From an uncultured Enterobacterales bacterium (GTDB lineage: Bacteria; Myxococcota_A; UBA796): DNA of 41,115 nucleotides. The notes under the pieces are model-generated. The model searched no databases. It was given only the letters and a program-made list of their open reading frames with translations, and had not been told where the DNA came from. Position numbers and translations under genes: made by a program. The stretch lies in assembly GCA_964554315.1 (NCBI GenBank), contig CAZKOI010000003.1, positions 1 to 41,115 of the forward strand. The letters run 5' to 3'. Below are positions 3,103 to 37,658 of this stretch, in pieces; position 1 is the first letter of the stretch, and each line of letters begins with the position of its first letter.

Positions 3103-3133
3103 TTCAAACCCTTACGTAAACGTAAGATTTAAT
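3103..3133 (+). promoter_or_regulatory. candidate MerR-type promoter with a dyad operator in a 19-bp spacer
   Basis: TTCAAA (3103-3108), a 19-nt spacer, then TTTAAT (3128-3133). The spacer contains the inverted repeat CTTACGT-AA-ACGTAAG (3111-3126; 7-bp arms, 2-nt centre). It lies 22 nt upstream of the MerR-family gene ATG at 3155. Confidence 0.45.
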
Positions 3134-3154
3134 CCCTGATCCAACTGGCCATAA

Positions 3155-3637
3155 ATGTCCGCTGCAACCTTCCGAATCGGTGAGCTCGCCAAGCGTGCTG
3201 AGAAGACCGTGCGCACGATTCACTTCTACGAGGAGCTGGGCCTGCTCCAGCCGGCCTCACGCAGCCCAGGCGGATTTCGGATGTACAACAGTCAGGCGCT
3301 AGACCGCATCCACTGGATCGAGCGACTCCAGGAGCTCGGCTTCTCCCTCACCGACATCAAGCAGTTTCTCGCGGACTTCCACGCCCACGACACCGGGCCA
3401 CAGTCCATGGACGCCCTCCGGAGCTTCTACACCGAGAAGCTGGCCGAGACCCAGGAAGCGATCGGCCGCCTGCAGTCGCTAGCCGCCGAGCTCGAGGCCT
3501 CCATTTCTTACCTTCAGGCCTGCACCGGGTGCGCCGTGAGCGACCCCGTGCATGCCTGCGCACAGTGCGACGACGACCAACACTCCAACAGCGACACGCC
3601 GCGACTTGTGGCCACCATCGCGACGAGGCCTTCATGA
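3155..3637 (+). CDS. MerR family transcriptional regulator with a C-terminal CX2CX8CX2C cluster
   Basis: The N-terminal MerR helix-turn-helix signature is [26 protein letters not shown]...GGFRMY. A coiled-coil-like helix follows ([28 protein letters not shown]), then C123, C126, C135 and C138. The TGA overlaps the iscS ATG (ATGA at 3634-3637). Confidence 0.85.
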
Positions 3638-4857
3638 CGGTGAAGACCCCTATCTACCTGGACAACCATGCCACCACACCCTGCGACCCTCGCGTCGCTG
3701 AGGCCATGTGGCCCTACCTCACCGAGTCCTTCGGCAATGCTGCGAGCCGCAACCACGCCTTCGGCTGGGCGGCCAAGGAGGCCGTTGAGGTGGCGCGCGA
3801 ACAGATCGCTGATCTCCTCGGCGGCGACGCGAAGGAGATCGTGTTCACCTCCGGGGCCACCGAGTCGAACAACCTCGCCATCAAGGGCATTGCGAAGTTC
3901 TACCAGAGCCGCGGCAAGCACCTGATCACCGTAGCGACCGAGCACAAAGCGGTGCTGGACTCCGCCCACGCGCTCGAGGAAGAAGGCTGGGAAGTGACCT
4001 ACCTGGGCGTCGGCGAGGATGGCCGCGTCCAGCTTGACGAGCTCGAGGCCGCCTTCCGGGACGACACCGTGCTCGTGAGCGTGATGCTCGCGAACAACGA
4101 GATCGGTGTGATCCAGCCCATCGCCGAGATTGGCGAGCGATGCCGAGCGCGCGGAATCTTCTTCCACTGCGACGCAGTCCAGGGCTTGGGGCGCATTCCC
4201 TTCGACGTCAAGGACGCCAAGGTTGACCTCGTATCAATCTCGGCCCACAAGATGTACGGCCCCAAGGGCATTGGTGCGCTGTGGGTGAGACGCGGCCGCC
4301 CCCGGGTTCGCTTGGCGCCCATCATCGACGGCGGCGGCCACGAGCGAGGCATGCGGTCGGGCACGCTTCCCGTCCACCAGATTGTGGGATTCGGAAAGGC
4401 CGCCGAGCTCGCGAAGCAAGAACTTGAGAACGGCGGCATCGACCGCGTGCGGGCGCTCCGGGACAAGCTCTGGAGCGGCCTCCAGGAGCAGCTCGACGAG
4501 CTCTACCTGAACGGATCTTGGGAGCATCGCCTGCCCAACAACCTCAACGTCAGCTTTGCCTACGTGGAGGGTGAGGCCATGATGATGGGCATCAAGGACA
4601 TTGCCTGCTCATCAGGGTCCGCCTGCACCTCCGCCAGCCTCGAGCCGAGCTACGTCCTCCGCGCACTCGGCGTCGACGTCGAGCTCGCTCACACCTCCAT
4701 TCGCTTCGGCGTCGGACGCTTCACGACCGAGGAGGAGATCGACTTCGCGCTCGATCTCATCGTCAAGAAGGTGAAGTGGCTCCGGAGCATGTCACCCCTG
4801 TACGAGATGGTGCAAGAAGGCATTGATCTCAAGACCATCCAGTGGACTGCCCACTAG
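3634..4857 (+). CDS. iscS: cysteine desulfurase IscS (PLP-dependent)
   Basis: [16 protein letters not shown] start, the PLP-lysine motif [12 protein letters not shown], the active-site loop [21 protein letters not shown] and the C-terminal ...KTIQWTAH. The listed ORF starts at 3529. I chose the ATG at 3634 because it overlaps the upstream stop and matches the usual IscS N-terminus. Confidence 0.93.
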
Positions 4858-4874
4858 CAACTGAGGACCGAATC

Positions 4875-5261
4875 ATGGCCTACAGCGATAAAGTTATTGA
4901 CCACCTTGAGAACCCTCGGAACGTGGGCAGCATGGATCGGAATGATCCGGATGTCGGCACCGGCATGGTGGGCGCGCCCGCCTGCGGCGACGTGATGAAG
5001 CTCCAGCTCAAGATCAACGACAGCGGAATCATCGAGGACGCAAAGTTCAAGACCTTCGGGTGCGGCTCAGCGATCGCCTCAAGCTCGCTCATCACCACCA
5101 TGGTGAAGGGGCAGTCCATTGATCAAGCGCTGGCCATCTCCAACGCTGAGATCGCCAAGGAGCTGTCGCTCCCTCCCGTCAAGATCCACTGCTCGGTGCT
5201 GGCTGAGGATGCCATCAAGGCCGCGATCAACGACTACCAGACCAAGAAAGGGAACGGATAA
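4875..5261 (+). CDS. iscU: Fe-S cluster assembly scaffold IscU
   Basis: MAYSDKVIDHLENPRNVG, GAPACGDVMKL, FKTFGCGSAIASSS and IHCSVLAEDAIKAAINDY (three conserved Cys). GAGGA lies 7 nt upstream of the ATG at 4875. Confidence 0.93.
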   Translation: MAYSDKVIDHLENPRNVGSMDRNDPDVGTGMVGAPACGDVMKLQLKINDSGIIEDAKFKTFGCGSAIASSSLITTMVKGQSIDQALAISNAEIAKELSLPPVKIHCSVLAEDAIKAAINDYQTKKGNG

Positions 5262-5264
5262 GCC

Positions 5265-5597
5265 ATGGCCGTGACGATGACCGACGCTGCGATCAAGCGG
5301 GTGAGGACGCTCTGTAAGAAGCGTCAGACACCCGACGCGGTCCTACGGGTCGGCGTCCGCGGCGGCGGCTGCTCGGGCTTGTCGTACTTCATGGACTTTG
5401 TGGAGCAAGCCGAGGAGAAGGACAAGATCTTCGAGTTTGGCGAGCCCGCGGTTACCCTGGCTGTGGACCGCAAGTCGTACCTCTTCCTCAACGGCACCGA
5501 GATCGACTTTGAGCAAACCATGATGAAGAGTGGGTTTCAGTTCAACAACCCCATCGCCGGCCGGTCCTGCTCCTGCGGTGAGTCGTTCACGCTCTAG
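5265..5597 (+). CDS. iscA: A-type Fe-S carrier IscA/HesB family
   Basis: 110 aa with LRVGVRGGGCSGLSY and the C-terminal CSCGESF motif. It follows iscU after 3 nt. Confidence 0.9.
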   Translation: MAVTMTDAAIKRVRTLCKKRQTPDAVLRVGVRGGGCSGLSYFMDFVEQAEEKDKIFEFGEPAVTLAVDRKSYLFLNGTEIDFEQTMMKSGFQFNNPIAGRSCSCGESFTL

Positions 5598-5606
5598 AGG
5601 CTGGTC

Positions 5607-6167
5607 TTGATCTGCTGGCAATGCCATGAGTCGACCCAGGGGGCGGTGTGCGTCGGATGTGGCGCCCTTCAGCCCCCGCCGCCAAAGGCCGACCCCTTTG
5701 TGGTTCTCGGCCTCCCGCGCCGGTTCGCCACCGATGCAGAGTCGGTCGAGGCAGCTTGGCGGGCCGTGTCGCGCGCGGTTCATCCCGACCGCTGGGCGGG
5801 CAAGCCGGCCGTCTTCCGACGGATGAGCCTTCAGTGGACCGCAGCCGTCAACGAGGCTCGCCGCGTTCTCTCGGACCCCCTCTCTCGAGCCTGGTACCTC
5901 GCCACCGGCTCGCCATCACCGCCCGAGCGAGGCGGACCTCAGCCCGACGGTGACTTCCTCGAGGCCATCTTCGATCTCCAGATGATGAGTGCTGCCGATC
6001 CTGAAGGAGCAAGAGAGACCGTACGGCAGATGTGGGATACACACCGCCAGCAGCTCGACCAAGCCTTCAGCGCCTACGAGTCAGGCTGCGGCACCCTCGA
6101 TGGCGTGGAGATGATTCTCGCTAAGCTGCAATATCTGAACACCGCGCGCACCCAGACAGGCGCATAG
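5607..6167 (+). CDS. hscB: Fe-S co-chaperone HscB (J-domain) with an N-terminal tetracysteine motif
   Basis: J-domain sequence [35 protein letters not shown] (HPD present) and position between iscA and hscA. TTG start at 5607 with AGAGG 6 nt upstream. No in-frame ATG exists before the Cys motif C3-X2-C6-X8-C15-X2-C18. Confidence 0.8.
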
Positions 6168-6178
6168 ACGGAGCCGCC

Positions 6179-8020
6179 ATGGCCAACATTGGTATCGATC
6201 TCGGAACCACCCACTCCCTCGTTGCCGTCGTCATCGATGGCAAGGCACGCGTGCTGCTCGATGACGATGAGCGCCCCCTCCTGCCCAGCGCTGTCCGCTA
6301 CGACGGAGAGGGTCAGCCCGTCAGCGTCGGCTACCCCGCGCTCGAGGCTGCACCCAACCCCGACGGAACCACCTTCACCAGCGTCAAGCGCTTCATGGGC
6401 CGGTCCGGTGCGGAGGTCGCTGACGAAGCCCGACTCTTTCGCTACGACTTGGTCGAAGATGACGCACAGGCCGTTCGATTTCGGGTGGGCCCGAGGGAAG
6501 TCACCCCGATCGAGGTGAGCTCATTCATCCTGCGCCTGCTCCACGCGCGCGCCGAGGAGTGTTTGTTTGGGCGACCCGGGGGCGCGGTCATTACGGTTCC
6601 AGCCTACTTTGACGACGCCCAGCGCCAGTCCACCCGCGATGCCGCCAAGGTGGCAGGAATCAACGTCCTGCGACTCCTCAATGAGCCCACCGCCGCCGCC
6701 CTCGCCTATGGCCTCAACGAGGGCAAGGAAGGCCAGACCGTCGCCGTGTTCGACCTCGGCGGAGGCACCTTCGACATCTCCATCCTCCGGCTCGAGGACG
6801 GCATCTTCCAGGTCCTCAGTACCGCCGGTGACACCCACTTGGGGGGTGACGACTTCGACCAAGCACTCGCTGGGGTCCTGCTCAGCCAGGCGGGCATTAC
6901 CGATGCCGACGGTCCGACTTACCGTGCCGCTATCGGGGCCGCTGAGCGCGCCAAGCGGGCCTTGTCGGCCGAAGACACCGCCACGCTGAGCGCAACCCTC
7001 GGCGGCCAAGCCGTCGAGGCGGAGATTGATCGCGCGAGCTTTGAGAACTTGATCCGACCCATCGTGAGCCGAACTGGAAATGCCTGCCAGCAGGCCTTGA
7101 GCGATGCCGGTCTGAGCGCCAGCGACATCGATGAGGTCGTGCTCGTGGGCGGCTCGACGCGGGTCCCTCTCGTTCGCGCTTTCGTCGCCGAGCTCTTCGG
7201 GCGGACCCCGCACTGCGATCTCGACCCGGACCAGGTCGTGGCCTTGGGTGCCGCTCTTCAGGCGGACATCCTCACGGGAGAGAGCGAGCTGGCTGAGGAC
7301 ATGCTGTTGCTCGATGTCGTGCCGCTCAGCCTGGGTCTCGAGATGATGGGCGGCGTCGTGGAGCGGCTGATTCCTCGCTGCAGCGCGATCCCTGCTGCCC
7401 AGTCGCAGACCTTCACCACCCATGTCGACAACCAGACCGCGGTCGATATTCACATCGTACAGGGCGAGCGAGAGTTGGTCGGAGACTGCCGCAGCCTAGG
7501 GCGCTTCAAGCTCACAGGAATCGCCCCGCAGCCCGCCGGAACACCCCGAATCAAGGTGGAGTTCATGGTCGATGCAGACGGCATCCTTCGCGTGCAGGCA
7601 ACGGATGCGGCGACGGGCGCCAACACCAGCGTCGAGGTTCAGCCCAGCTACGGCTTGTCCGAAGACGAGATCGAGACGATGCTTGAGGCGGCCATCGACC
7701 ACGCAGAGAGCGACGTCGATGAACGGCTGCTGATCGATGCGCGAATTGAGGCCGAGCAGATCGCGAACCAGGTCCAGAAGGCCATCGCCGCCGATGGAGA
7801 CATGCTCGAGGCTCCCGAGCGCGCCCAGATTGAGGACCTCTTGGACACCCTTAGAGACGCCATGAGCGGCGGAGACCGCCACCGAATCTCCGAGCTCTCT
7901 CACCGGATCGATGAGGTCACGGCACCCTTCGCCCAGCGGCGAATCGAGCGAGACCTCGAGCTTGCCATTCAGGGCAAGGCGGCCTCGGAGGTTGCGAAGG
8001 AACTGGGCGTCTCGAAGTAG
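6179..8020 (+). CDS. hscA: Fe-S protein assembly chaperone HscA (Hsp70 family)
   Basis: 613 aa with [35 protein letters not shown] and a C-terminal helical lid. It sits directly after hscB. Confidence 0.9.
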
Positions 8021-8029
8021 ACTCTCGGC

Positions 8030-9424
8030 GTGGCACGATACGCGACAATGGTGGCCCTCTGGGCCCTTGCTGCTTGGCACAGACTGCGCTTGGTCGAGCA
8101 CGCGATCGTGGGGTCAGACTCTCTAGGCCCCTACCTCCAAGCCAAGGCGGCCTTGCTCGGTCACGTGCCTCGTCCACCGAACCCCGAGAGCGGCGACGCA
8201 CTGTGGTTGCTTGCGGTGCCGCTGGTGTCCTTAGCCGACTCATTGGAGGCACTGTTCGAGGCGCGATTTGTGCTGGGCGGCGTCGTAGCGCCCCTGGCCT
8301 TTGCCGCTGCTTGGCATTGGGCCGACGATGACGTCTCTGCGGCGCGGCGATGGGCGGGGGCGCTGGCGGCCGGGGTCCTGATGGCCTTCGATCCAGGCTT
8401 GGTTGACACCTTAGTGAGCGGGGCGCGGAGCTACGGTGCGCCCGAGCTTGTGGGCCTAATGACCCTCGGTGTCGCGCTCGCCATCCGCGGCTACACCCAC
8501 GGCTTAGCCCTCGCCATGTTGGGGCTGGTCTGGGCCGCGGGACACCACCCGCTCTCGATCGGAGCCGCCGCGGGTCTCTGGCTCATGTGGCCACAACGCG
8601 AAACATGGCGCGTCCGGCGGGCAGCGCTCCTCTTCGGTGCACTCCTCGCGGTACCGAGACTGCTCAGGCTCGCCAAACTTGCCCTCTGCGGGGAAGGTCT
8701 CGTGCCCTGCATTGTGCGCGTCGCACAGAGCAACAACAGCACGGCGGAGCCGATGCTTTCCCAGCTGAAGACCGCAATGCACGACCGCTTCTTGGTCGAC
8801 TGGGGCTCGGGTCTATGGGTGGTTCTTGCGGGGGTCCTGGCCACAGCACTGTGCCGGCACCGAACTCACCGACGCGCAGCAGGCTTCGCCGTGCTCTGTC
8901 TGATCGGCCTCGTCAGTGTCGGAATGCTGAACGGCTACCTGCGGTCGTACCACCTTCGGATCATCGCTGTTCCGCTCGCGGTCGCAGCAGGGCTCGGCCT
9001 GGCCAGGGCCTGGCCCCTGGCGCCTCTCGGCGCGCTCGCGGCCGTGATGAATTGGCAGCCACACCTGATCGTCGGGCCGGATCCCGGCGCCGTCGCCCGT
9101 CATGATCGCATCGCGGCCGAGCTTCCCTCAGGTCCTAAGTGGGTAGACCGCGTCTGGTGGTCGGGTTCACCGACCGTGGATGCATCAGCCGTCGTCCTGA
9201 GCGGCATGCTGCAAGGCGCCGAGGGCTTCGCCCTCGGGCCTGATGTTCCCGTCACGCTTCTCTCAGTGGAAGACAATTCCTGGGAGGTCATGCGTTTCAG
9301 GACATCAACCGAGGCTCGCTCATGGTTAGATGGACAAGGTCGGACGCCCCATCAGCGGGGTGGAGCGTATGACTGGGCAACAATTGTCGATCCCTCTACC
9401 CGCCTCGAGGATGCCCGCTGGTGA
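8030..9424 (+). CDS. polytopic integral membrane protein of unknown function (possibly GT-C-like) with a soluble C-terminal domain
   Basis: 464-aa ORF with about 10 hydrophobic segments and a roughly 110-aa hydrophilic C-terminus. It begins 9 nt after the hscA stop, and its stop overlaps the next GTG (GTGA at 9421-9424). The start is uncertain (GTG 8030 or ATG 8048). No family motif was recognised with confidence. Confidence 0.55.
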   Translation: MARYATMVALWALAAWHRLRLVEHAIVGSDSLGPYLQAKAALLGHVPRPPNPESGDALWLLAVPLVSLADSLEALFEARFVLGGVVAPLAFAAAWHWADDDVSAARRWAGALAAGVLMAFDPGLVDTLVSGARSYGAPELVGLMTLGVALAIRGYTHGLALAMLGLVWAAGHHPLSIGAAAGLWLMWPQRETWRVRRAALLFGALLAVPRLLRLAKLALCGEGLVPCIVRVAQSNNSTAEPMLSQLKTAMHDRFLVDWGSGLWVVLAGVLATALCRHRTHRRAAGFAVLCLIGLVSVGMLNGYLRSYHLRIIAVPLAVAAGLGLARAWPLAPLGALAAVMNWQPHLIVGPDPGAVARHDRIAAELPSGPKWVDRVWWSGSPTVDASAVVLSGMLQGAEGFALGPDVPVTLLSVEDNSWEVMRFRTSTEARSWLDGQGRTPHQRGGAYDWATIVDPSTRLEDARW

Positions 9425-10239
9425 CACTGAGCGTGCGCGAACGTGAATTCAAGATCGGCCCCTACCGGGTGATCCGCCACATCGCGCAGGGAGGCATGGG
9501 CGCCGTCTATGAAGTCGAAGACCCCACCAAAGACGGGCACTTCGCCCTCAAGCTCGGCGCAAATGATCACGGCAGAGACCCTCGATTCCTCCAGATCCAT
9601 CGCTCGCTTAGCCGCGTTCCACACCCTGGGATCGTGAACAGTCATGCCGTCGGTACCACACCGGATGGCCGCTCATTCCAGCTGCTCGACCTGATTCACG
9701 GGGAGCCGGCCCAGGTCTTCGCGCGAAGCATGGGCAGCCCGGGATCTCGGGTACGGTCAACGGCAGTCATCACCGTGGCCATCCACTTGGCCGAGGCCCT
9801 CGCGCACCTCCACAGTCACTCCATCATCCACCGCGACATCAAGTCTTCCAACGTCATGGTCCGACAGGACCACAGCGCCTGCTTAATCGACTTCGGTGCA
9901 GCCATCTTACCCGGTCTGCCCATGCGCCCGGGGCGCTTTGTCGGGACCTACAGCTATGCCGCACCGGAGCATATCCGTGGCGAGCCGCTCGATGGGCGTG
10001 CCGATGTCTACTCGATGGGGGTGCTCCTCCACCGAATGCTGAGCGGAAGACCACCGTTCGCGGCCGACACCACCAAGGACCTCATCCACCAACACCTTCA
10101 CGCGCCGCCGCCTCGCCTCGATGCCTCTCTCCTCGATCTTCCCTCCACCGTCGTCGAGCTGACGCTCGCCATGCTCGAGAAAGATCCCGCCCACAGGCCC
10201 AACGCTCAAGGCGTCGCCCAGACGTTGATGCAGGCCTGA
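9421..10239 (+). CDS. Hanks-type Ser/Thr protein kinase, kinase domain only (272 aa)
   Basis: IAQGGMGAVYEV (Gly loop), FALKL (Lys), HRDIKSSNVMV (catalytic loop), DFGAA and SYAAPE. There is no extra regulatory or transmembrane domain. Confidence 0.85.
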   Translation: MTLSVREREFKIGPYRVIRHIAQGGMGAVYEVEDPTKDGHFALKLGANDHGRDPRFLQIHRSLSRVPHPGIVNSHAVGTTPDGRSFQLLDLIHGEPAQVFARSMGSPGSRVRSTAVITVAIHLAEALAHLHSHSIIHRDIKSSNVMVRQDHSACLIDFGAAILPGLPMRPGRFVGTYSYAAPEHIRGEPLDGRADVYSMGVLLHRMLSGRPPFAADTTKDLIHQHLHAPPPRLDASLLDLPSTVVELTLAMLEKDPAHRPNAQGVAQTLMQA

Positions 10240-10241: not shown

Positions 10242-12173
10242 CTAGTCCGGAGCCCAGAGCTCGCCGGCCCCAGACTCCAGGCGCCGCAGAGTCGGCCCTG
10301 ACGTCGCGCCGCTAATCAGCTCCGTACCCCCCTCTGTGGCGACCTCAACAGCCTCCGAGCTGAGGTTGAGGTAGGCCGTTACACCGCCCTCAAACCGCCA
10401 CACCACGGGAACGCTGTCGTCTGGCATCGCGTCCTCAAAGGGCGGGCCTGGGTCGACGCCAGACACATGCTGCAGCGGATCCTGGGGTCGAACCGATTGG
10501 CCTCGAAGGCTCATGAGCTCATCGCTCGTCGCGAGCGCCAAGCGAGAGCCCGGCAAGGCCGGTAGATCGTCGCCGAGCATCCAGGTACCCCCGGACACTG
10601 CATTCGCCACGAGGGCTCCCGTCACCTCTTCATCCGAGAAAGGCGGGCGAACCAACAATTGATCGGGATCAATCCACCACCATCGACCATTGGTCCATCC
10701 CCGTGCCGCCGTCGACCGCGCAGCCCAGCGCAGGTAGGCCAGCTTGGGGATGCGATCAAAGCCAAAGGCGATGTCGGCCCCGGTCCGAAATGACTCTGCA
10801 TAGCCGTGAGAGGGCAAGAAGGGCGCACCGCAGGCCAAGATCCATGCGTCGCCTGCAGCCTCTCGAATCACCTGCATGCCCACATGAAAGGCCTCAATGC
10901 CAGTGACGTCATCATGCCTCTCGCCGACCTGGGCGCCCGCATAGAGGAAGTCGAGCTTGAGATAGGTCCATCCATCGGCGACCTTGGACGCGATCTCATT
11001 GGCAAGCCAGGTTGCGGCCTCAGGGTGCGTAGGATCGAGCACCGCGTAGTCTCCGGTGCCCAGGTTACTGAAGCTAATCTCGCCTCCACCGTCAATGCGC
11101 TTGACCCACCAGTCCGGGTGATCGCGATAGGTGTCGGTGCTTCGTGAGACGTAGAAGGGCGCCATCCACAGGCCAGGCGTGAAGCCCGCAGCCGCAATTT
11201 CGCTCGCGAGGGCCGGCATCCCCGATGGAAAGTCATCGCCCGCCTGCCAGTCGCCCCAGAGCCGCTGCCAGCCATCGTCAATCTGAAAGACCTCAAGCCT
11301 GGTGCCCCGCTCATCGCTGAGCTCGGTCTCGGCGAAGGCAAGGTTGGCTCTCACATCGACCTCCGAGATGTCCTCAAAGAAGTGATACCAGGTCGCCCAC
11401 CCTGTGGGCGGGCGGTCGCCGAGCACCCGCGCAGGTATGCGCTCAGCCACCGCCTCAGCATAGTCCTCGTGGAGCCCCTGGGGGTCCGCGCCGGAGCCCA
11501 ACCAGATGGGATCGAGGGCCACCGTCTCCCCCGCATCAAGCTCTATGCTGTCGCCGCGATGGCCCCACACGGCCCATACTCGCTCGTCGTCAAACGCGAG
11601 ATAGAACCGCGTCTTCTGCGCACCCAGCGCACCGATCAAGAGGCTCTCGCCGTCCGCCCGTCCAATCGCACCCACCCACCACGATGTTCCCGGCGCCTCA
11701 TCCTTGACGGCGACCGCGTCCCCGTCGCCCCCAATGAGGGGGACGTCGCGCTCATCGACCGCGATGCTATCAATCGGAGCGACTCCGGAGTGAGACCAGG
11801 ACTGGTAGCCTTGGCGCCAGACCACGGGCTCGCTCACCCCGGCTATCCGATAGGTGCCAGAGAGCATCAAGCCGTCGAGACGCCCCGCCTCCGTCGCGGT
11901 GATCAGCGGCTGCCAGCCTCCATCCACATCAATCAACTCGACCGTGAGCCCGCCGGTTCCATGGACCGACGCCACCAGCTGTGCCTCTGCGCAGTCCCTG
12001 CGACGGTACGTCAGCGTACCCTCCGCCCACATCGCCGCTCCTTCGATGCCGCTGCAGCGGGAGTCCGATCCCGTGTCGCTCGCCGATTTTTGCGGCTGAC
12101 ACGCGGAGGCCATGACCAAGACGCTCATCGAGAGGACTCGCAGCCGTCGCTCAAGGGTGTGACATTCAGGCAT
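10242..12173 (-). CDS. alpha-galactosidase, GH36-like, probable lipoprotein
   Basis: WATWYHFFEDISE, FQIDDGWQRLWGDW, GLWMAPF and YLKLDFLYAG are melibiase/GH36-type motifs. I chose the ATG at 12173 (MPECHTLERRLRVLSMSVLVMASAC) because it gives a signal peptide with a lipobox-like ASAC and removes the overlap with the divergent gene at 12232. The listed ORF extends to 12434. Confidence 0.75.
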   Translation of the reverse strand: MPECHTLERRLRVLSMSVLVMASACQPQKSASDTGSDSRCSGIEGAAMWAEGTLTYRRRDCAEAQLVASVHGTGGLTVELIDVDGGWQPLITATEAGRLDGLMLSGTYRIAGVSEPVVWRQGYQSWSHSGVAPIDSIAVDERDVPLIGGDGDAVAVKDEAPGTSWWVGAIGRADGESLLIGALGAQKTRFYLAFDDERVWAVWGHRGDSIELDAGETVALDPIWLGSGADPQGLHEDYAEAVAERIPARVLGDRPPTGWATWYHFFEDISEVDVRANLAFAETELSDERGTRLEVFQIDDGWQRLWGDWQAGDDFPSGMPALASEIAAAGFTPGLWMAPFYVSRSTDTYRDHPDWWVKRIDGGGEISFSNLGTGDYAVLDPTHPEAATWLANEIASKVADGWTYLKLDFLYAGAQVGERHDDVTGIEAFHVGMQVIREAAGDAWILACGAPFLPSHGYAESFRTGADIAFGFDRIPKLAYLRWAARSTAARGWTNGRWWWIDPDQLLVRPPFSDEEVTGALVANAVSGGTWMLGDDLPALPGSRLALATSDELMSLRGQSVRPQDPLQHVSGVDPGPPFEDAMPDDSVPVVWRFEGGVTAYLNLSSEAVEVATEGGTELISGATSGPTLRRLESGAGELWAPD

Positions 12174-12231
12174 CACGCGTGGCTCACTCTGACAGCTACG
12201 GTACCTTTGAAGTTTCCATGGAGGACGACTC

Positions 12232-12879
12232 ATGCGCGCGATCATTTGGACCCTCTTGTCTCTGCTCGTCATTGCGGTCGCGCCTGCCGCTTCGGCAGCC
12301 TCGGCCGATGAACCGCACGACCACCGGGGCCTCCTAACGCCCATCTCGACGACGCCAACCGCCGTCTCGCTCTCCGCCGAGGAGAAGGCGAAGCTGGAGG
12401 CTGGAAACCATGTGGAGCGCCACATCGAGAGCAAGGACGGTGGGTCGGGGGTCGCCGTTCAGTACATCAAGGCGAGTCCGGAGGCCATATGGCAGACCAT
12501 CCTGTCTTATCACCGCTACAGGGACTGGGTAAAGAACGTGGTCAGCTGCTCCGTCTACAAGCGAGAAGGGGACTACTTCTTTGTCGACATGCAGACCTCG
12601 GTGTTCGGCTTCAAGTCTCGCGTCTTCACCAAGAACATCGTCCACAAGACCGAGGGCTACATGGCCTGGACCCTGGACTACGATCGAAAGAGCGATGCAG
12701 ACGACCTCGTTGGGTACTGGCGGGTCGAGCCGGTGGCAGAGCTGCCCGGCGTGACCAAGCTGGAACACTCCAACACAATCAAGATCAAGGGCGTACCCGG
12801 ATTCTTGGTGAACTACATGACACGGGATGCACTCAAGGAAGGCACAGCCTGGGTCAAGCGAGAGGCGGAGAAGCGCTGA
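12232..12879 (+). CDS. secreted SRPBCC (START/polyketide-cyclase-like) family protein
   Basis: Signal peptide MRAIIWTLLSLLVIAVAPAASAASA. The body (AIWQTILSYHRYRDWVKNV...WRVEP...) looks like an SRPBCC ligand-binding fold. GGAGGA lies 6 nt upstream of the ATG. Confidence 0.65.
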   Translation: MRAIIWTLLSLLVIAVAPAASAASADEPHDHRGLLTPISTTPTAVSLSAEEKAKLEAGNHVERHIESKDGGSGVAVQYIKASPEAIWQTILSYHRYRDWVKNVVSCSVYKREGDYFFVDMQTSVFGFKSRVFTKNIVHKTEGYMAWTLDYDRKSDADDLVGYWRVEPVAELPGVTKLEHSNTIKIKGVPGFLVNYMTRDALKEGTAWVKREAEKR

Positions 12880-14029: not shown

Positions 14030-14747
14030 GAATCCCCTCCGCCCAGCGCACATCGGCCGGCGTGTTGAGCCCAACCAGCTCACGCCAGTCGTTGATGGAG
14101 ACCGCCTCGACACGGTGGCCTTCTTCGAGCAGGAGACCAATGGTATCGGTGAGGTAGCGCTCACCGGTGACGGGGTGGGGGACGACGCGGTCGAGGACCG
14201 ACCAGAGTGCGCGCGCATCAAAGACAAAGTGAGAGGTCAAGTACTCCGTCAACTGAGCCTGCTCCGGCGAACAGTCGCGCTCCTCGATCACTGCCGCAAC
14301 ACGGCCATCCTCCGCGCGGACGACGCGCGCATAGGGATAGTGCTGGGCAAAGTCTGCCGTGAGGAAAGAGCATGCGGCCTCACGCTCTCGGTGCTCCCGC
14401 TGCAGCGCACGAATCGACGACTCGGATATGAGCGGGCTGTCGCCGACAAAGACGAACACCTCGCTGCACTCACTCACCGACGATCTCGCCATGTCGACCG
14501 CATGGGCCGTCCCTAGACGGACGCCTTGCAGTGGCGTGCGAACCTCCTCACCGAGGTGGGCACGCATCGTCTCCGCTTGATGGCCCACCACAACCGAGAC
14601 CGTGCCGATACCGGCGGCTCGGACTGCGTCAATGAGGTGATCGATGATGGGACGTCCCGCCACCGGCACCAACGGCTTGGGTCGGTCCGAGCCCATTCGC
14701 TTGCCCTGGCCCGCAGCCAGGATGATGACAGCCGATTCAGTGCTCAT
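14016..14747 (-). CDS. sugar-phosphate nucleotidyltransferase (GlmU N-terminal-like, no acetyltransferase domain)
   Basis: MSTESAVIILAAGQGKRMGSDRPKPLVPVAG (the LAAGxGxRM motif) and LGTAHAV, about 243 aa. The ATG at 14747 overlaps the GH1 stop region by 11 nt. The listed ORF to 14906 is an extension inside GH1. Confidence 0.8.
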   Translation of the reverse strand: MSTESAVIILAAGQGKRMGSDRPKPLVPVAGRPIIDHLIDAVRAAGIGTVSVVVGHQAETMRAHLGEEVRTPLQGVRLGTAHAVDMARSSVSECSEVFVFVGDSPLISESSIRALQREHREREAACSFLTADFAQHYPYARVVRAEDGRVAAVIEERDCSPEQAQLTEYLTSHFVFDARALWSVLDRVVPHPVTGERYLTDTIGLLLEEGHRVEAVSINDWRELVGLNTPADVRWAEGILAAR

Positions 14748-16146: not shown

Positions 16147-16295
16147 GCGACTAACCTACTTGTGAGAAGTTTATTGCTCGGTCCTGTAATACGACCCTCG
16201 CGGCTCTGGACCGAACGTCGCCAAAATGACGCATTACGCAGAAGTTGGTACGCTTCGGCCGGCGGGAGTCACTCCTCCTTCACTATGGTGATCCG

Positions 16296-19504: not shown

Positions 19505-19510
19505 GGACTC

Positions 19511-31897: not shown

Positions 31898-33253
31898 TCA
31901 GAGCGTCGGTGGACGGACAAAACGGGCCACGGCCTCCACGTGAGGCGTCTGCGGAAAGAGGTCTATGGTCCACAGCTGATCGAGTCTCCAGCCACCGTCC
32001 TCAAGCAGCTCCCGGTCGCGCGCGAGGCTGGTCGGGCTGCAGGCCACATAGACCAGTCGTTCCGCGTCGTAGGTCGATAGAAACCGCGCCACCTTGGGGT
32101 GCAGGCCCGCGCGGGGCGGATCGACCACGACGTGCCGGGCGCCCTTGAGCGGCAGATCCGCGAGCACATCCTCAACCTTTCCCGCTATCCAGCGCCCGCT
32201 AATGCCATTGGCCTTCGCATTGCCTGCGGCAATCTGAACCGCCGAATCGACCACCTCCACCCCGAGAATCTCACGGTGACCCTGGCCCACAATGAGGCCG
32301 ATCGCCCCTACGCCGCAGTACAGGTCAAGCAGGGTGGCGTCACCGGGCTCACCCAGAGCCTCCGCCACGGTCTCAAAGAGGACCCGCGCCCCCTCGGTAT
32401 TGACTTGAAAGAACGCATCATGGGGAAGGGCAAGCTGCACGCCTGCCATCTCGAGCCGAACCAGAGGATCTCCCCATGTTCGCTGGGTATCGCCACTGGC
32501 CACATCGCTGAGCCGGTCTGTCGTGGTCCAGACCACGCCACCGACCTCGTCGCGCGCCAAGAGCCGATCGGCCACGCGCTCGACCGACGCGGGGTCCACG
32601 CTGGGGTGCGTCACCAGGTTGACCACGACGTGATGTCCTTCTCTGAGCACGACGTGGCGCCACTGGCCGCAGTGGGCTTGGTTATCCCAAGCGGGACCGA
32701 GCGATGCATCGTGGACATCCTCGAGGGCTGCGTTGATGCCGCTCGAGGCCAGCGGACATTGCGGCACGGGTACAATCTTCGAGAACCAGCCCGGCGGATG
32801 AAAGCCCAGCCAGTCGCCCTCGGAGGGCGCATCTCGCTCATCGTCAGGCAGGAAGCGTCGAACGCCGAACGACAGCTCGAGCTTGTTCCGGTAGCCATAG
32901 CCTGCGCCATCACCTCGTATTGGCCTGGACGCGTGCCCGACCAAGCGCTCTACCATGGCTTGCTTCTCCGCGCGCTGCCGCTCAAGCGGCATCTCTTGGT
33001 ACTGGCAGCCGCCGCAGACGCCGAAGAGCGAGCACGCGGGGGCCACCGCATCCGCCGAGGGGGTCTCTATAGCGATTCGTCGGGCGGACTGCTTCCTTCC
33101 CGGCCAAGCTGAGACGACCGCACCCACGGGCGCTGCCCAGACCCGCCATGTCCGGCCAGCATCATCCTCACCCTCCGCACCCTTAGGCTGAAGCCGCTCC
33201 AGCTTGACGGTAATCGGCTCTCTGTTCTTCTTTCGATGTCCGCGACGGCCCAC
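31898..33253 (-). CDS. RumA/RlmD-type SAM-dependent RNA (uracil-5-)-methyltransferase with an Fe-S Cys cluster
   Basis: CSLFGVCGGCQYQ plus a later QCPL (the RumA-type 4-Cys pattern), the SAM motif LLDLYCGVGAIGL, then DPPRAGL and VYVACSP. The start is set at GTG 33253, with GGAGG 4 nt upstream. The listed ORF to 33445 would overlap the divergent gene. Confidence 0.8.
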   Translation of the reverse strand: MGRRGHRKKNREPITVKLERLQPKGAEGEDDAGRTWRVWAAPVGAVVSAWPGRKQSARRIAIETPSADAVAPACSLFGVCGGCQYQEMPLERQRAEKQAMVERLVGHASRPIRGDGAGYGYRNKLELSFGVRRFLPDDERDAPSEGDWLGFHPPGWFSKIVPVPQCPLASSGINAALEDVHDASLGPAWDNQAHCGQWRHVVLREGHHVVVNLVTHPSVDPASVERVADRLLARDEVGGVVWTTTDRLSDVASGDTQRTWGDPLVRLEMAGVQLALPHDAFFQVNTEGARVLFETVAEALGEPGDATLLDLYCGVGAIGLIVGQGHREILGVEVVDSAVQIAAGNAKANGISGRWIAGKVEDVLADLPLKGARHVVVDPPRAGLHPKVARFLSTYDAERLVYVACSPTSLARDRELLEDGGWRLDQLWTIDLFPQTPHVEAVARFVRPPTL

Positions 33254-33280
33254 GGTCCCTCCATAGGATAGGTCGTGCCC

Positions 33281-36200
33281 ATGCTTACCGTCCTGACCTC
33301 TGTACTGGCCACCATCCTTCCCGTCTTTGCGGCGGACAGCCCTGCTCCCGAGGAGCCCAACTGGGACATCTCCGCTGCGCACGGACCCACCCACACCCGA
33401 ACGATCGACACCGATGAAGGCACCTGGATGAGTGTCACGGTTCATGGCGAGACGATCGTCTTCGACCTATTGGGCGACCTGTGGATGATTCCCCTCGAGG
33501 GGGGCGAAGCAACCCGACTCACCGAGGGTCCGGCATGGGACTCGGAGCCCCGCTTCTCGCCCGACGGCAGCCGCCTCGCCTACGTCTCGGACGCCGGCGG
33601 CAATGAGCAACTGTGGATCATGGACGCCGACGGCAACAACGCCAAACAGATCACCCAAGAAGAGGATGCCCGCGTCACCGATCCGGTCTGGGACCCCGAT
33701 GGACCGTGGCTGCTGGGACGACGCCGAACGGTCGACACGCGCAGCATCGGCGTGACAGAGCTCTGGCAATACCATCTCGACGGCGGCGATGGCTTCGCCC
33801 TCACGACGAAGGACGCTCATCCGCACGCAGGCGAGATGACAACGGACGGGGACCACCTCTGGTTCTCCAGTCGGGCGGGTCGCTTCAGCTACGACGCGAA
33901 CCCCCTGACAGGCCTCTGGCGGATCATGCGGCTCGACCGAGAAACCGGAGAGCTCCGCGTCGAGATCAGCGGCAACGGGAGCGCCGTCCGTCCCATGCTG
34001 ATGCCCGACGGAAGCGGCATCGCGTTCGCAAGCCGCGACCGCAACCGTACGCTGCTCGAGGTGCTTGACTTCTCGACCCGACAGCGTCGGGTCCTCGGAG
34101 ACTGGCTGGACCACGATCAGATGGAGGGCTTTGCTCTCCATGGTGTCTACCCGGCCGGCGACTGGACCCAAGACGGGGACTTGGTGATCTGGGCCGAGGG
34201 CAAGCTCTGGCGCGTCTCGATGACTGGCGATCGCCAGCCCATTCCTTTTCGCGCGCGGGGAGACTGGACGTTCCACGATGTTCCACGGTGGCAGCGGACC
34301 ACGCCTTCCGACGTTCAAGCTCGGCTAAACCGATGGGCAACCGCCAACCGCTTCGGTGACATTGCCTACTCGGCGATGGGTCGTCTGGTGGTCCAGGGAG
34401 CGACTGGGGAGATCCGCGATCTCGGTCCCGGCTTCTCCCCCTCATGGAGCGCTGACGGACGCGAGGTCCTGTGGACATCTTGGTCGGATGAGGCCGGAAC
34501 CGGGCGCCTCCACATTACGGGCAGGCGAGGTCGAGGAAAGACGACCGATCTCGGCATCTCGGGACAGCTGGTCAGCCCGGTGATGTCGAGAGATGGTCAG
34601 ACCGTGGCGGTTCTTCGAGATCCGAACACCGACAACAGCCCGAGCATGGGCAGCATCCCGTGGTACGAACTCATCGTCTTGCGGCGGGGGCAGGGTCAAT
34701 GGACGCCCGAGGTGACCGCGGCCAAAGTGGACACTGGAATGGGCTTCCGGGCACCTCGTCTCGCGCTTCACGACGGTCGCATCTGGTGGCTCAGCGTCGG
34801 CGAGACACCGGATCGCCAGCCGGCGAAAGCCGAGTGGGTTTCAGTCGATATGGCGGGAAGAGACAAGCGCGTCCACCTGCACCTCGAGGGCGCCGTCGAG
34901 GCCAGCCCATCGCCGGACTTCACTCGCTTGGCCTACAAGCTCGGCCACCAGGCGTGGATGACTGCTATGCCGAAGCCCGGCTCCGAGGTGGAGCTGAAGG
35001 CGCTGCCAAAGCGTAAGCTCAGTGAGACCGTCGGAGACTGGATGGGATGGACCGCGGATGGCCAAGGCGTCACGTGGACAGAGGGTGCCACCTTGGTCAC
35101 CTATCCGCTGGACGGGATCGGGATACCCCCCGCGCCCGAGCGCGCCCCCGACCGCACCGCCGATGACCGTCCGAGCACGCCCGCTCGTCTGGAGACACCG
35201 CTTCGCTACAGCCGCCCTCGAGATGCGCCGACCACGATGACGGCGCTCACCCACGCGACCGTGCTCACCATGGGAGGCGAGGAGGTCCTGGAGAACGCAA
35301 CCATCCTGATTCAGGGTGACACGATCAAGGCCGTCGGCACCACGGTCGAGGTCCCACCCGGCGCGAAGACCATCGATCTCAGCGGCAAGACGGTGATTCC
35401 CGGTCTCATCGATGTCCACGCCCACATGCACTACGGCTCAAGAGACATCATCCCTGAGCAGCCCTGGGCCTACAGCGTCAACCTGGACTTCGGCGTCACC
35501 ACCGTTCACGATCCGAGCGCGTCCACCGACGTGGTGTTCACGCAGGCCGAGCGCGTCGAGGCCGGTCTCAGCGAAGGACCCCGAGTCTACTCCACCGGCT
35601 ATGTCCTCTACGGGGCCCTGGGTAACGAGAACGCGAAGACCCCGGACCAAGCATCGGCACAGCACCACGTCGAACGATTGAAGTTGGTCGGCGCGCAGAG
35701 CGTCAAGGTCTACCAGCAGAGCCGAAGAGACCAGCGGCAGTGGTACGTGAGCGCGTGCAATGAGCGCCAGGTCCTCTGCGTTGCGGAGGGCGGTGGAGAT
35801 CTGTGGATGAATCTCTCGATGGTGGCCGATGGCTTTCACGCCATCGAGCACGCCCTGCCCAATGCACCGCTCTACGGCGACGTGCACCAATTCATGGCGG
35901 CCAGCCAGACGGAAGCATCGGCAGGAACGGCCTACTCACCCACCCTCATGGTGGCGTACGGAGGGCTCAGCGGAGAGCAGCTCTACTTCGCTGAGGATCA
36001 AGCCTATGACCACCCCCGACTTCTGCGAAGCTGGGACCGCCGCGATCTCGACGCACGAACCTATCGCCGAGGTCCATCGGCGCGTTCCGGGGACTGGAAC
36101 CATCAACAGGTCGCGCGAGAAGCCGCGGAGATGGCCCGCCGCGGCGTGCTGGTCACTCTGGGCGCACACGGGCAACTGCAAGGCCTCGGCGTACACTGGG

Positions 36201-36424
36201 AGCTCTGGGCGCTGGGTGGGCCGGGGGCCATGTCGCCCATGGACGCTCTGCGGGCAGGCACGGTGGCGGGCGCTCGTTACCTGGGAATCGATGACCAGGT
36301 GGGCACGGTCCAGCCCGGTAAGCTCGCCGACCTCCTGATCCTGAACAGCGATCCTCGCCTCGACATCCGCAACTCCGCCGACATCCACATGGTGCTGAAG
36401 AACGGACGCATCGTGAGCGAGTGA
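33281..36424 (+). CDS. secreted TolB-like PD40 beta-propeller protein fused to a C-terminal amidohydrolase domain
   Basis: Signal peptide MLTVLTSVLATILPVFAA. PD40-type repeats recur (PRFSPDGSRLAYVSD, PMLMPDGSGIAFAS, SPSWSADGREVLW, PVMSRDGQTVAV). The amidohydrolase motifs are IPGLIDVHAHMHYG and, late in the protein, GKLADLLIL. Confidence 0.8.
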   Translation: MLTVLTSVLATILPVFAADSPAPEEPNWDISAAHGPTHTRTIDTDEGTWMSVTVHGETIVFDLLGDLWMIPLEGGEATRLTEGPAWDSEPRFSPDGSRLAYVSDAGGNEQLWIMDADGNNAKQITQEEDARVTDPVWDPDGPWLLGRRRTVDTRSIGVTELWQYHLDGGDGFALTTKDAHPHAGEMTTDGDHLWFSSRAGRFSYDANPLTGLWRIMRLDRETGELRVEISGNGSAVRPMLMPDGSGIAFASRDRNRTLLEVLDFSTRQRRVLGDWLDHDQMEGFALHGVYPAGDWTQDGDLVIWAEGKLWRVSMTGDRQPIPFRARGDWTFHDVPRWQRTTPSDVQARLNRWATANRFGDIAYSAMGRLVVQGATGEIRDLGPGFSPSWSADGREVLWTSWSDEAGTGRLHITGRRGRGKTTDLGISGQLVSPVMSRDGQTVAVLRDPNTDNSPSMGSIPWYELIVLRRGQGQWTPEVTAAKVDTGMGFRAPRLALHDGRIWWLSVGETPDRQPAKAEWVSVDMAGRDKRVHLHLEGAVEASPSPDFTRLAYKLGHQAWMTAMPKPGSEVELKALPKRKLSETVGDWMGWTADGQGVTWTEGATLVTYPLDGIGIPPAPERAPDRTADDRPSTPARLETPLRYSRPRDAPTTMTALTHATVLTMGGEEVLENATILIQGDTIKAVGTTVEVPPGAKTIDLSGKTVIPGLIDVHAHMHYGSRDIIPEQPWAYSVNLDFGVTTVHDPSASTDVVFTQAERVEAGLSEGPRVYSTGYVLYGALGNENAKTPDQASAQHHVERLKLVGAQSVKVYQQSRRDQRQWYVSACNERQVLCVAEGGGDLWMNLSMVADGFHAIEHALPNAPLYGDVHQFMAASQTEASAGTAYSPTLMVAYGGLSGEQLYFAEDQAYDHPRLLRSWDRRDLDARTYRRGPSARSGDWNHQQVAREAAEMARRGVLVTLGAHGQLQGLGVHWELWALGGPGAMSPMDALRAGTVAGARYLGIDDQVGTVQPGKLADLLILNSDPRLDIRNSADIHMVLKNGRIVSE

Positions 36425-36425
36425 G

Positions 36426-37136
36426 CTACTCCGTGGCGAGCTCGTAGCGGAAGCTGCTGTTGCCGATCCGAACCCGATCGCCGCTTCGAAGCGGCTGGGA
36501 GGTCACGGCCTGCTCGTTCACCGTGACCTTGATCATCCGTCCTTGCTTGTTCAGGACGTGGTTCTTGCCGTCCCACGAGACGTCGGCCACGACGCCCCCC
36601 GAGAACATGCCCTCGACCGGAATCATTCCGTCTCCGCCGAAGGTCAAAGACCGGTCCTCCGGGTGCCAAAACCGGGCCTGATTGGTGACCAATACAAGGC
36701 GAGCGTTTCGCATCTTGTTGACCTCGTCCTGCATCTGCCTCAGCTGCGCCGGCGACATCGCAAAGGTCGAGTCGTCAAAGTTTCGCGCCTTTGCGTCATA
36801 GCGAACCATGTACTCCAGAAAGCGACCCTTGTAGAACCGATCATCGGGCCCGTCACCCATGTACACCAGGTTGAACTTTCCGAGGAGAATCTCATCACCA
36901 CTACCGAGAATGGCCCCCTCGACCGTTCGACCATTCACCATGGTGCCGTTGCTGCTGCCCAGGTCTTCGATGGAGCAGGTGTGACCGTCCCAGAGCAGCT
37001 GGGCATGGTGCCGACTCACCGAAATGTTCGGGAGCATCAGGTCTGCGTCATCGCCACGGCCGATCACCACCTTGTCCTTCTCAATGTCGAAGACCCTGCA
37101 ACCCTCTGCTTGATTGAGAATGACGATCCGAGGCAT
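36426..37136 (-). CDS. FHA domain-containing protein
   Basis: The N-terminal FHA signature is VVIGRGDDADLMLPNISVSRHHAQLLWDG...IEDLGSSNGTMVNG. The C-terminal half resembles a second, degenerate FHA-like beta-sandwich (LTFGGDG...VTVNEQAV...GDRVRIGNSSFRY). AAGGAG lies 6 nt upstream of the ATG. Confidence 0.85.
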   Translation of the reverse strand: MPRIVILNQAEGCRVFDIEKDKVVIGRGDDADLMLPNISVSRHHAQLLWDGHTCSIEDLGSSNGTMVNGRTVEGAILGSGDEILLGKFNLVYMGDGPDDRFYKGRFLEYMVRYDAKARNFDDSTFAMSPAQLRQMQDEVNKMRNARLVLVTNQARFWHPEDRSLTFGGDGMIPVEGMFSGGVVADVSWDGKNHVLNKQGRMIKVTVNEQAVTSQPLRSGDRVRIGNSSFRYELATE

Positions 37137-37175
37137 GTGCTACTCCTTGGCCCTTACGCCCTTTCAAAGCGCATA

Positions 37176-37658
37176 TTACGCGTTGGCCTTGATTGCGTCC
37201 ACCACTCGAGGGAGCAGGTCGTTCCAGTCCACATCAGCGGCCTTTGAGACCGTGATGAAATCGTTCACACCGAAGACGCTGACCACACCCTCAAGAGCGA
37301 CAACGGCAGCCGCGATAGGATGCGCGATGTCCTGGTCTCCTGAGTTGAAAGAGAAGGAGCCCGTCTCTGCGACCTTCACACTCAGCGCGAATTTCATGGC
37401 GTTCGGGTTGGGCGTCTCCTGCGGGTCCACCTGAATGTCAGACCGCTTTGGCGCCTTGGTGACCCGCTTCTTTGGGGGGGCCTTCTTCGGGGCGGGCTTG
37501 GCGCTCTCGGTCGGGGTTGCCTCGGCTCTGGGAGGGGCTGCAGGCGCCGCGACCGGTGCCATAGGGGGTGCCGGTGAGGGCGCATTTCTCTCCCCGTCCA
37601 TGACGCTGATCGCCCGCTTGAGCACTCGGATGGGAAGGCTTGCAAATCGTCGAATCAT
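37176..37658 (-). CDS. Nfu_N (scaffold protein Nfu/NifU N-terminal) domain protein with a Pro/Ala/Lys-rich N-terminal region
   Basis: The C-terminal roughly 85 aa (IQVDPQETPNPNAMKFALS...HPIAAAVVALEGVVSVFGVNDFITVSK...W) match the Nfu_N pattern (TPNPN.LKF). No CxxC NifU C-terminal domain is present. GGAGGA lies upstream of the ATG. Confidence 0.7.
   Translation of the reverse strand: MIRRFASLPIRVLKRAISVMDGERNAPSPAPPMAPVAAPAAPPRAEATPTESAKPAPKKAPPKKRVTKAPKRSDIQVDPQETPNPNAMKFALSVKVAETGSFSFNSGDQDIAHPIAAAVVALEGVVSVFGVNDFITVSKAADVDWNDLLPRVVDAIKANA

Follow-up and report, generated by a model that had tools for sequence, protein, structure and literature searches.

The 41,115-nt stretch analyzed here (contig CAZKOI010000003.1, positions 1 to 41,115, of assembly GCA_964554315.1, hereafter the window) comes from an uncultured bacterium of the UBA796 lineage and carries the genes for assembling Fe-S (iron-sulfur) clusters by the ISC pathway, the bacterial frataxin gene cyaY and a gene for an Nfu_N-domain protein, with genes of Ser/Thr phospho-signalling downstream of each. 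The supported part of our analysis is structural: the gene order in relatives points to an inherited, operon-like enlargement of the ISC cluster, specific to one clade, that contains cyaY, a membrane protein of the GT-C fold (memb) and two Hanks kinases, putatively of the STAND type (kinase-a and kinase-b), and to a separate pair formed by the Nfu_N-domain protein and an FHA-domain protein. A regulatory link between these signalling genes and Fe-S assembly is plausible, and most so for frataxin. In the joint reading, to which we assign a probability of about 0.4, kinase-b and cyaY are regulated together, with the kinase acting on the ISC machinery or responding to it, kinase-a belongs with the GT-C protein, and the link through the FHA and Nfu_N-domain proteins is at best indirect.

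Pfam was run on 33 open reading frames (ORFs) of the window, and NCBIfam was used in addition. The G+C content is 62-67%, DNA near-identical to the window is present in salt-marsh, estuary and seawater metagenomes, and the metagenome-assembled genomes (MAGs) that carry homologues of the window genes are labelled Myxococcota or "Deltaproteobacteria". For the isc side, an alignment of memb homologues was scanned against one genome per GTDB species, which yielded 21 loci; this set was enlarged by two long metagenome contigs, and the loci (given L numbers below) were compared by tblastn with all window proteins and by measurement of the gaps between genes. A scan of metagenomes provided 80 loci for the Nfu_N-domain protein. 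Locus L005, which bears the gene cluster of the window, is the MAG UBA796, the namesake of an uncultivated class-level Myxococcota taxon (PMC11937823). The gene identities and junctions described in an earlier note on this DNA are reproduced by Pfam, NCBIfam and a reading of the sequence at 8020/8030, 9421, 19169, 19504/19511 and 37176/37136, and the adjacencies that it reported are kept in relatives at all checkable clade loci: memb with kinase-a in 20/20, aminotransferase-cyaY-kinase-b in 11/11 and Nfu_N with FHA in 26/26.

The most stable arrangement is a trio on the plus strand. A class I/II (Asp-aminotransferase-like), pyridoxal phosphate-dependent aminotransferase gene (17886-19172; Aminotran_1_2, 135 bits) overlaps cyaY (19169-19504) by ATGA at 19169-19172, and the cyaY stop at 19504 is followed, after a gap of 6 nt, by the ATG of kinase-b at 19511. 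The assignment of CyaY is secure in both databases (PF01491, 59.7 bits with a gathering threshold of 21.3; TIGR03421, 67.2 bits with a cut-off of 53.25). The trio is unbroken in the window, L002-L005, L016, L020, L107, L108/109, L110/111 and L112/113, over a divergence in which CyaY identity falls to 57-64% and the gap between cyaY and kinase-b varies from 3 to 151 nt. Over the same divergence, the segment just upstream of the trio ranges from 0 to 7.6 kb, with the trio itself broken in 0/11 loci. Because rearrangements hit the hscA|memb junction, the memb|kinase-a junction and the interval from kinase-a to the aminotransferase, and never the trio, cyaY with kinase-b appears to be the only clean, never-broken pair and is plausibly the best candidate for a real link. 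The best NCBIfam matches of the aminotransferase are aspartate aminotransferases, all below their cut-offs; its identification as a MalY/PatB-type C-S lyase that supplies sulfur was dropped on this ranking.

Kinase-b (19511-22993, 1160 aa) combines a protein kinase domain (Pkinase, 117 bits) with a putative AAA_16 NTPase region (26.9 bits, threshold 32.6) and a TPR region (TPR_12, 40.5 bits, above threshold); in the L110 orthologue, AAA_16 is matched at E<=1e-5. The translation contains GEGGSCSVY, VAIK, HQDLKPAN, DLG and APE, and so describes a non-RD kinase with HQD in place of HRD and DLG in place of DFG, whose catalytic motifs are intact. The order of kinase, putative STAND NTPase and TPR parts, as well as the solubility, appears to be shared with PknK-type proteins (PknK of M. 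tuberculosis, and many proteins of Myxococcota and Actinobacteria), a likeness of architecture, and kinase-b differs from these proteins in its non-RD motifs.

The ISC genes lie upstream on the same strand and comprise iscS (~3640-4857; Aminotran_5, 273 bits), iscU (4842-5261; NifU_N, 179 bits), iscA (5265-5597; Fe-S_biosyn, 66 bits), hscB (5607-6167) and hscA (6179-8020; HSP70, 600 bits). HscB shows a weak J-domain match (DnaJ, 28.8 bits), and NCBIfam HscB models match below their cut-offs. By Pfam, IscS, IscU, IscA and the HscB/HscA pair are thus encoded in one cluster, as expected of an ISC operon. The order iscS-iscU-iscA-hscB-hscA, the tight spacing and the family assignments are shared with iscRSUA-hscBA-fdx-iscX of E. 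coli, from which the window differs in several respects. The E. coli operon includes fdx and iscX, whereas the cluster in the window appears to have neither: in tblastn searches with E. coli probes for Fdx, IscX and IscR, the window gave noise only at E<=10 and the clade loci gave nothing at E<=0.01. In place of the Rrf2-type IscR, the isc genes are headed by a MerR-family regulator (3155-3637, +; Pfam MerR_1, MerR and MerR-DNA-bind) that ends 2 nt ahead of iscS and whose C-terminus contains CxxC-x9-CxxC (x9/10 in the clade), with the four Cys invariant in 14 clade orthologues; this protein could be a metal- or Fe-S-sensing replacement for IscR. Downstream, hscA is followed by the GT-C-fold membrane protein and a Hanks kinase, and cyaY is located 0-8 kb beyond the ISC cluster on the same strand throughout the clade, whereas in E. 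coli cyaY is not known to be linked to isc.

The gene after hscA encodes memb, a 464-aa polytopic membrane protein (8030-9424, +). The hscA stop TAG (8018-8020) and the GTG at 8030 are separated by 9 nt; since the starts of homologues align with ATG 8048, this codon may be the real start, which would make the gap 27 nt. Neither Pfam nor NCBIfam matches memb, and in 58 homologues Pfam at E<=1 reveals no consistent family, with NCBIfam likewise giving no match. The AlphaFold2 (AF2) model, obtained with the 58-sequence alignment, has a predicted local distance difference test score (pLDDT) of 93.8 and a predicted template modelling score (pTM) of 0.92, and its top Foldseek matches are STT3, ALG9, ArnT, PMT (PMT4), AftD and Emb (probability 1.0, template modelling score 0.45-0.54). 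The predicted overall fold, an Asp in the first loop and a C-terminal domain appear common to memb and the GT-C glycosyltransferases (STT3/PglB, ArnT, PMT, ALG9, Emb/AftD): D30 of GSDSLG, in the loop after the first transmembrane helix, is nearly invariant, and a soluble C-terminal alpha/beta domain is predicted. The family is further marked by the motifs PPNPE, DTL and R-x-Y-x-x-PE and by an invariant Cys pair, CGxGxxxC. However, memb is short compared with these enzymes, has no sequence-level membership in their families and belongs to a small family (228 representatives of clusters at 50% among 1.84e9 proteins). From the predicted structure, memb looks like a glycosyltransferase-like protein of the GT-C fold that represents a new, uncatalogued family.

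Kinase-a (9421-10239, +; Pkinase, 129 bits) is joined to memb by a GTGA overlap at 9421-9424. In the window it is a bare catalytic domain of 272 aa with the complete Hanks motif set (GGMGAVY, ALK, HRDIKSSN, DFG and APE) and, unlike PknK-type proteins, has no NTPase/TPR part. The orthologues are ~1140-1200 aa long in the subclade with 42-45% memb identity (L009:11376-14981, L010:3962-7390, L011:2639-6076 and L022:11360-14785) and 1109-1130 aa long in the most distant subclade (1109 aa in L002); those of L010, L011 and L022 were scanned and show a kinase-AAA_16-TPR/MalT architecture, with AAA_16 at 56-61 bits. Because the deeper branches carry this long form, the 272-aa kinase-a of the window is a truncation, and its subclade has lost the STAND/TPR regulatory part. 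Of 23 loci, the window included, 18 have comEC-merR-iscSUA-hscBA ahead of memb, as far as the sequence on that side can be seen. A kinase-a orthologue is found downstream of memb, within 2.3 kb, in 20/20 loci, at a distance of -4 to 194 nt in 14 of these, and the pair persists away from isc in L010, L011 and L022. The description of a polytopic membrane protein followed by a kinase is confirmed, but the arrangement is not specific to isc, as the kinase tracks the GT-C-fold protein even where the latter lies away from isc; judged by gene order, kinase-a is tied more tightly to memb than to isc. In L022 (MAG UBA2385), memb is preceded by thiG, the thiazole synthase gene (8884-9762, +), with a 4-nt overlap, a pathway that again depends on sulfur transfer.

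The ISC genes with kinase-a and the trio with kinase-b had been counted as separate modules, which the relatives contradict. In every relative they share a strand and lie 0-8 kb apart. L005 has the twelve genes from merR through hyp201 in an uninterrupted row on a single strand, and in L110/L111 kinase-a abuts the aminotransferase directly, on contigs that do not reach the isc genes. The two modules were thus one cluster: the ancestral state is a single extended isc-cyaY cluster containing both kinases, and the two are not independent cases. The segment that separates them in the window (10242-17795) encodes, by Pfam, GH31/melibiase-like, polyketide-cyclase-like, galactokinase, NTP-transferase and GH1 proteins and a FadL-type porin. 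This 7.6-kb sugar island is found in the window and L001, only fadL is found at that site in L003/L004, and L005 and L110 have no such block, for which reason it is an insertion in the lineage of the window. In the deepest subclade, a protein of 297-363 aa with weak MerR/HTH matches, absent from the window, is encoded between the long kinase-a and aminotransferase-cyaY-kinase-b (L002:17862-18761, L108:5389-6480, L112:3956-4849) and may be a second regulator.

The Nfu_N-domain protein (37658-37176, -; 160 aa) had been taken for a cluster carrier. PF08712 (78.9 bits) is its only domain, and this domain is what it has in common with carriers of the NFU1/NfuA type; the NifU C-terminal domain with its CxxC is missing by Pfam and by sequence. 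The window protein contains no Cys, and 18 orthologues contain 0-1 Cys, none of which is conserved. Since both the Cys and the NifU C-terminal domain are lacking, the protein has no Cys with which to ligate a cluster and cannot be a conventional Fe-S cluster carrier. Instead, it differs from NFU1/NfuA by an extra basic tail similar to H1/HC2: a conserved N-terminal motif, MIRRxAxLPxRxLKRA...DGERxAPSP, is followed by a Lys/Pro/Ala-rich, histone-H1-like tail, which in homologues matches PF07382 (HC2). The tail suggests a protein that binds the nucleoid or a polyanion instead of passing on clusters.

Between the Nfu_N stop (TAA, 37178-37176, minus strand) and the ATG of the FHA gene at 37136 (37136-36426, -; 236 aa) lie 39 nt that include AAGGAG. 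At all 26 loci with a full-length Nfu_N protein of the clade type, the FHA gene is 23-55 nt downstream of Nfu_N. Its N-terminal FHA domain is canonical (PF00498, 83 bits), and the phosphothreonine (pThr) contact residues GR, SRxH (SRHH in the window) and SxNGT (SSNGT) are kept in 25/25 orthologue matches. Among solved structures, the domain comes closest to GarA, OdhI and FhaA (E 2.5e-15 to 7.7e-11), and the NCBIfam OdhI model matches at 75 bits, below its cut-off. The domain is thus most similar to those of the actinobacterial GarA/OdhI and FhaA-type regulators, with the pThr-binding residues conserved; in contrast to GarA/OdhI, the FHA domain starts at residue ~14 and no N-terminal phospho-acceptor arm of the ETTS type is present, and in contrast to all three the protein has an additional C-terminal region of ~140 aa and is encoded after an Nfu_N-domain protein. 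This region may be a degenerate FHA domain; its last 95 aa give only a sub-threshold Pfam FHA match (E 0.039), and a single-sequence AF2 model of the protein (pLDDT 34.7) gave no usable fold for the C-terminal domain.

Transcription could be followed in four salt-marsh metatranscriptomes with low-depth contigs from this organism and in a fifth, X23. The isc core has the highest coverage in the window, with iscS, iscU and iscA reaching depths of 4-8; the genes for Nfu_N and FHA each have coverage in three of the four runs, X23 also covers FHA, and comEC has zero coverage. Because the coverage is patchy and gene-specific, the contigs are read as RNA, which argues against contaminating DNA. Three junctions are crossed by contigs with a depth of 2-3x. 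The hscA/memb junction is crossed by contigs 7896-8179 and 7876-8034 and the Nfu_N/FHA junction by contig 37108-37301, and co-transcription of hscA with memb and of Nfu_N with FHA is plausible. At the cyaY/kinase-b junction, contigs 19189-19515 and 19355-19533, from two runs, reach only 5-23 nt into the kinase gene, and no contig crosses the memb/kinase-a junction. Scans of the three junction regions for consensus promoters and terminators found nothing at the junctions; the counts are at or below shuffle expectation and therefore uninformative.

The complete gene map begins with comEC, the merR-family gene, iscS, iscU, iscA, hscB, hscA, memb and kinase-a, as assigned by Pfam and NCBIfam. The middle holds the sugar genes and the FadL porin, mostly on the opposite strand, followed by the aminotransferase, cyaY, kinase-b and, 27 nt after kinase-b, a proline-rich predicted lipoprotein (23021-23626, +) that has a signal peptide with a Cys lipobox and no Pfam match. 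Beyond these are two hypotheticals without a family match, an aldo-keto reductase, PBP1, PEPCK, a tRNA methyltransferase and a PD40-amidohydrolase, and the map ends with the Nfu_N-domain and FHA proteins on the minus strand, a homocysteine methyltransferase (HMT), DnaJ-TPR and HtrA. Taken at their longest, the ORFs for the tRNA (uracil-5) methyltransferase (31898-33445, -) and the PD40/amidohydrolase (33275-36424, +) overlap head-to-head by ~170 nt, and the true start of one or both probably lies further in. A 560-aa hypothetical (24843-26525, -; no Pfam match) is ~11 kb from Nfu_N in the window; a homologue occurs ~0.5-0.7 kb downstream of Nfu_N in the outgroup loci L067, L069, L070, L073, L086 and L102, and the gene between the two has a LysM domain in L102 and no Pfam match in L086.

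A number of observations weigh against the joint reading. Genes without any evident relation to it are conserved as well as the signalling genes: comEC adjoins merR in 14/15 loci and is conserved together with the hydantoinase gene upstream, the lipoprotein gene follows kinase-b in L003, L004, L005, L035 and L110, and HMT and the PD40-amidohydrolase (both in all loci), DnaJ-TPR and HtrA surround Nfu_N/FHA as persistently as the pair itself is kept. Because these unrelated neighbours are equally conserved, the kinase adjacency does not stand out, and the conservation may merely reflect slow rearrangement in one clade. None of the three adjacencies was found outside the UBA796-like marine Myxococcota clade. 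The gene for the nearest CyaY outside it (54% identity) has ffh (SRP54) on one side and a dUTPase gene, then pnp, on the other, with neither an aminotransferase nor a kinase adjoining; tblastn detected no FHA orthologue at outgroup Nfu_N loci, and in ten outgroup loci scanned with Pfam the gene after Nfu_N has no FHA domain, the genes found there being aminopeptidase P, LysM, amylase, sigma-54, GBBH-like_N and GNAT, with three lacking an assignable family. Within the clade, hscA and memb are not neighbours in 5/23 loci (9 kb of inserted DNA separates them in L008, and they are unlinked in L010, L011, L017 and L022), memb and kinase-a are split by ~2.2 kb through an opposite-strand gene in 6/20 (MopE-type in L002), and two distant members of the memb family are near neither isc nor kinases. 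Besides its lack of Cys, the Nfu_N protein offers no conserved Thr in its tail for docking of the FHA domain, as the subclade of the window has an SP rather than a TP site. At the RNA level, the aminotransferase gene and the 3.4-kb body of kinase-b have zero coverage in the four runs although cyaY is covered, which hints at a cyaY-sized transcript that is separate from those of the adjacent genes or far outnumbers them.

These points bear on a neutral explanation, in which a region of ~40 kb has been little rearranged since the clade ancestor and neither the kinases nor the GT-C protein nor the FHA protein has a role in Fe-S assembly; we regard this as nearly as likely as the joint reading. 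It accounts for the equal conservation of comEC-merR, the lipoprotein, HMT and the PD40-amidohydrolase, for the disappearance of the three adjacencies in the nearest outgroups and for the missing coverage of the kinase-b body. It also gains from the common origin of the first two modules. When the 27 gene units of the window are permuted, 3/3 Fe-S units have a signalling gene within two same-strand genes downstream in a fraction of 4e-4 (a definition set once the data had been seen), but with modules 1 and 2 as one locus only two independent coincidences are left, for which the fraction with >=2 (at least two) such units is 0.018 before any post-hoc correction. Conservation of each adjacency in relatives, the first check proposed in the earlier note, is borne out within the clade but does not exceed that of unrelated flanking genes, and the nearest outgroups have none of the adjacencies. 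In 536 kb of clade loci (largely orthologous neighbourhoods), no kinase or FHA domains occur beyond the orthologues of kinase-a, kinase-b and the FHA gene, and the local kinase/FHA density is therefore not high. What speaks against pure neutrality is that gene order here does change: there are insertions of 0-7.6 kb between kinase-a and the aminotransferase and breaks at hscA|memb and memb|kinase-a, yet the trio remains intact down to ~74% identity in IscS and ~63% in HscA. The start/stop overlaps and gaps of 3-15 nt are typical of translationally coupled operon genes, and bacterial Hanks kinases are often encoded beside their targets, as are PknH-EmbR, PknG-GlnH and PknK-virS/mym in M. tuberculosis. 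The signalling genes may instead regulate other neighbours, kinase-a and the GT-C protein forming an envelope-glycosylation pair and kinase-b, FHA or both steering the metabolism of amino acids or central metabolism as GarA/OdhI do, for example via the aminotransferase. We consider this unlikely as a whole. In its favour, of all pairs that of memb and kinase-a persists most (20/20) and is kept without upstream isc in L010, L011 and L022, memb has the GT-C fold, the FHA domain is nearest to those of GarA, OdhI and EmbR-type proteins, which regulate metabolism and arabinosyltransferases, and the aminotransferase is linked to kinase-b as tightly as cyaY is; however, cyaY always stands between the aminotransferase and kinase-b, the FHA protein has no ETTS-type arm of the GarA/OdhI kind, and the GT-C protein is not tied to any particular substrate. 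Far less probable is a chance insertion of kinase/STAND-NTPase genes of anti-phage defence (PD-T4-6, MADS or Avs-like) beside housekeeping genes. Both kinases are matched by the PADLOC models PD-T4-6 and mad6 (E to 1e-60) and have a putative STAND-type architecture, but the matches are confined to the generic kinase domain (residues ~1-280), on which ground this explanation was rejected; moreover, the genes occupy the same chromosomal position clade-wide with orthologous divergence, unlike mobile defence islands, and the Pfam scan of the window shows no other defence genes nearby.

It is a long-standing debate whether frataxin/CyaY acts as an activator or a brake of cysteine desulfurase, and what sets its activity in vivo is not clear. 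In the joint reading, the steps of which are ranked here by falling confidence, the aminotransferase, cyaY and kinase-b would form one co-regulated unit, and kinase-b would be a cytosolic Hanks kinase gated by its STAND/TPR part. This kinase would phosphorylate a component of the ISC machinery (CyaY, IscS or IscU) or would itself be set by the Fe-S or iron status, and its action would modulate how CyaY affects IscS. With less confidence, kinase-a would work mainly with the GT-C membrane protein in envelope glycosylation and would merely be co-expressed with isc. In the third place, the FHA protein may read a pThr mark from one of the two kinases, and its connection to Fe-S assembly through the Nfu_N-domain protein would be the weakest step. 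The proposal of the earlier note that Fe-S assembly is wired to Ser/Thr phosphorylation accordingly narrows to cyaY and kinase-b as a clean pair, since the kinase of the first module follows memb and the third module does not contain an Fe-S carrier.

The earlier note also held that no bacterial circuit of this kind had been described. This is now outdated: in S. suis, a DUF1831 protein binds SufB once the kinase STK has phosphorylated it, and so keeps SUF-dependent assembly of Fe-S clusters going (published in 2026; PMC13085941), and a link from a bacterial kinase to Fe-S biogenesis is therefore no longer unprecedented. The STK-SstP1-SufB circuit, like the candidate link in the window, connects a Hanks-type kinase with the biogenesis of Fe-S clusters in bacteria. 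However, it involves SUF and a DUF1831 adaptor in a Firmicute and was shown biochemically and genetically, whereas the window concerns ISC and CyaY in Myxococcota and offers gene order alone; Pfam matches neither SUF nor DUF1831 among the 33 window ORFs. For ISC and CyaY, the literature searched contains no cyaY-kinase neighbourhood and no bacterial ISC substrate of a Hanks kinase, the other papers found besides that on S. suis SUF being eukaryotic and concerned with NFS1 and ISCU. A bolder reading, which we think improbable, is that a class-level lineage of marine Myxococcota put its ISC machinery under Hanks-kinase control, such that kinase-b phosphorylates CyaY or IscS/IscU and thereby switches the effect of CyaY, with the second kinase and the FHA reader feeding in signals from the envelope or the nucleoid. 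If true, this would be the first bacterial phospho-switch linked to ISC and frataxin.

If the link is not functional, the locus serves as a warning that adjacency within a clade needs to be compared with the conservation of unrelated neighbours. In either case, several unannotated items are gained, namely a small GT-C-fold family that is paired with a kinase within the clade, a four-Cys MerR regulator at the place of IscR and a Cys-less Nfu_N-domain protein with a histone-like tail. For the biology of this group, a lineage in which cyaY always lies nucleotides upstream of a sensor-type Ser/Thr kinase provides a concrete system for the question of whether CyaY, IscS or IscU is phosphorylated.

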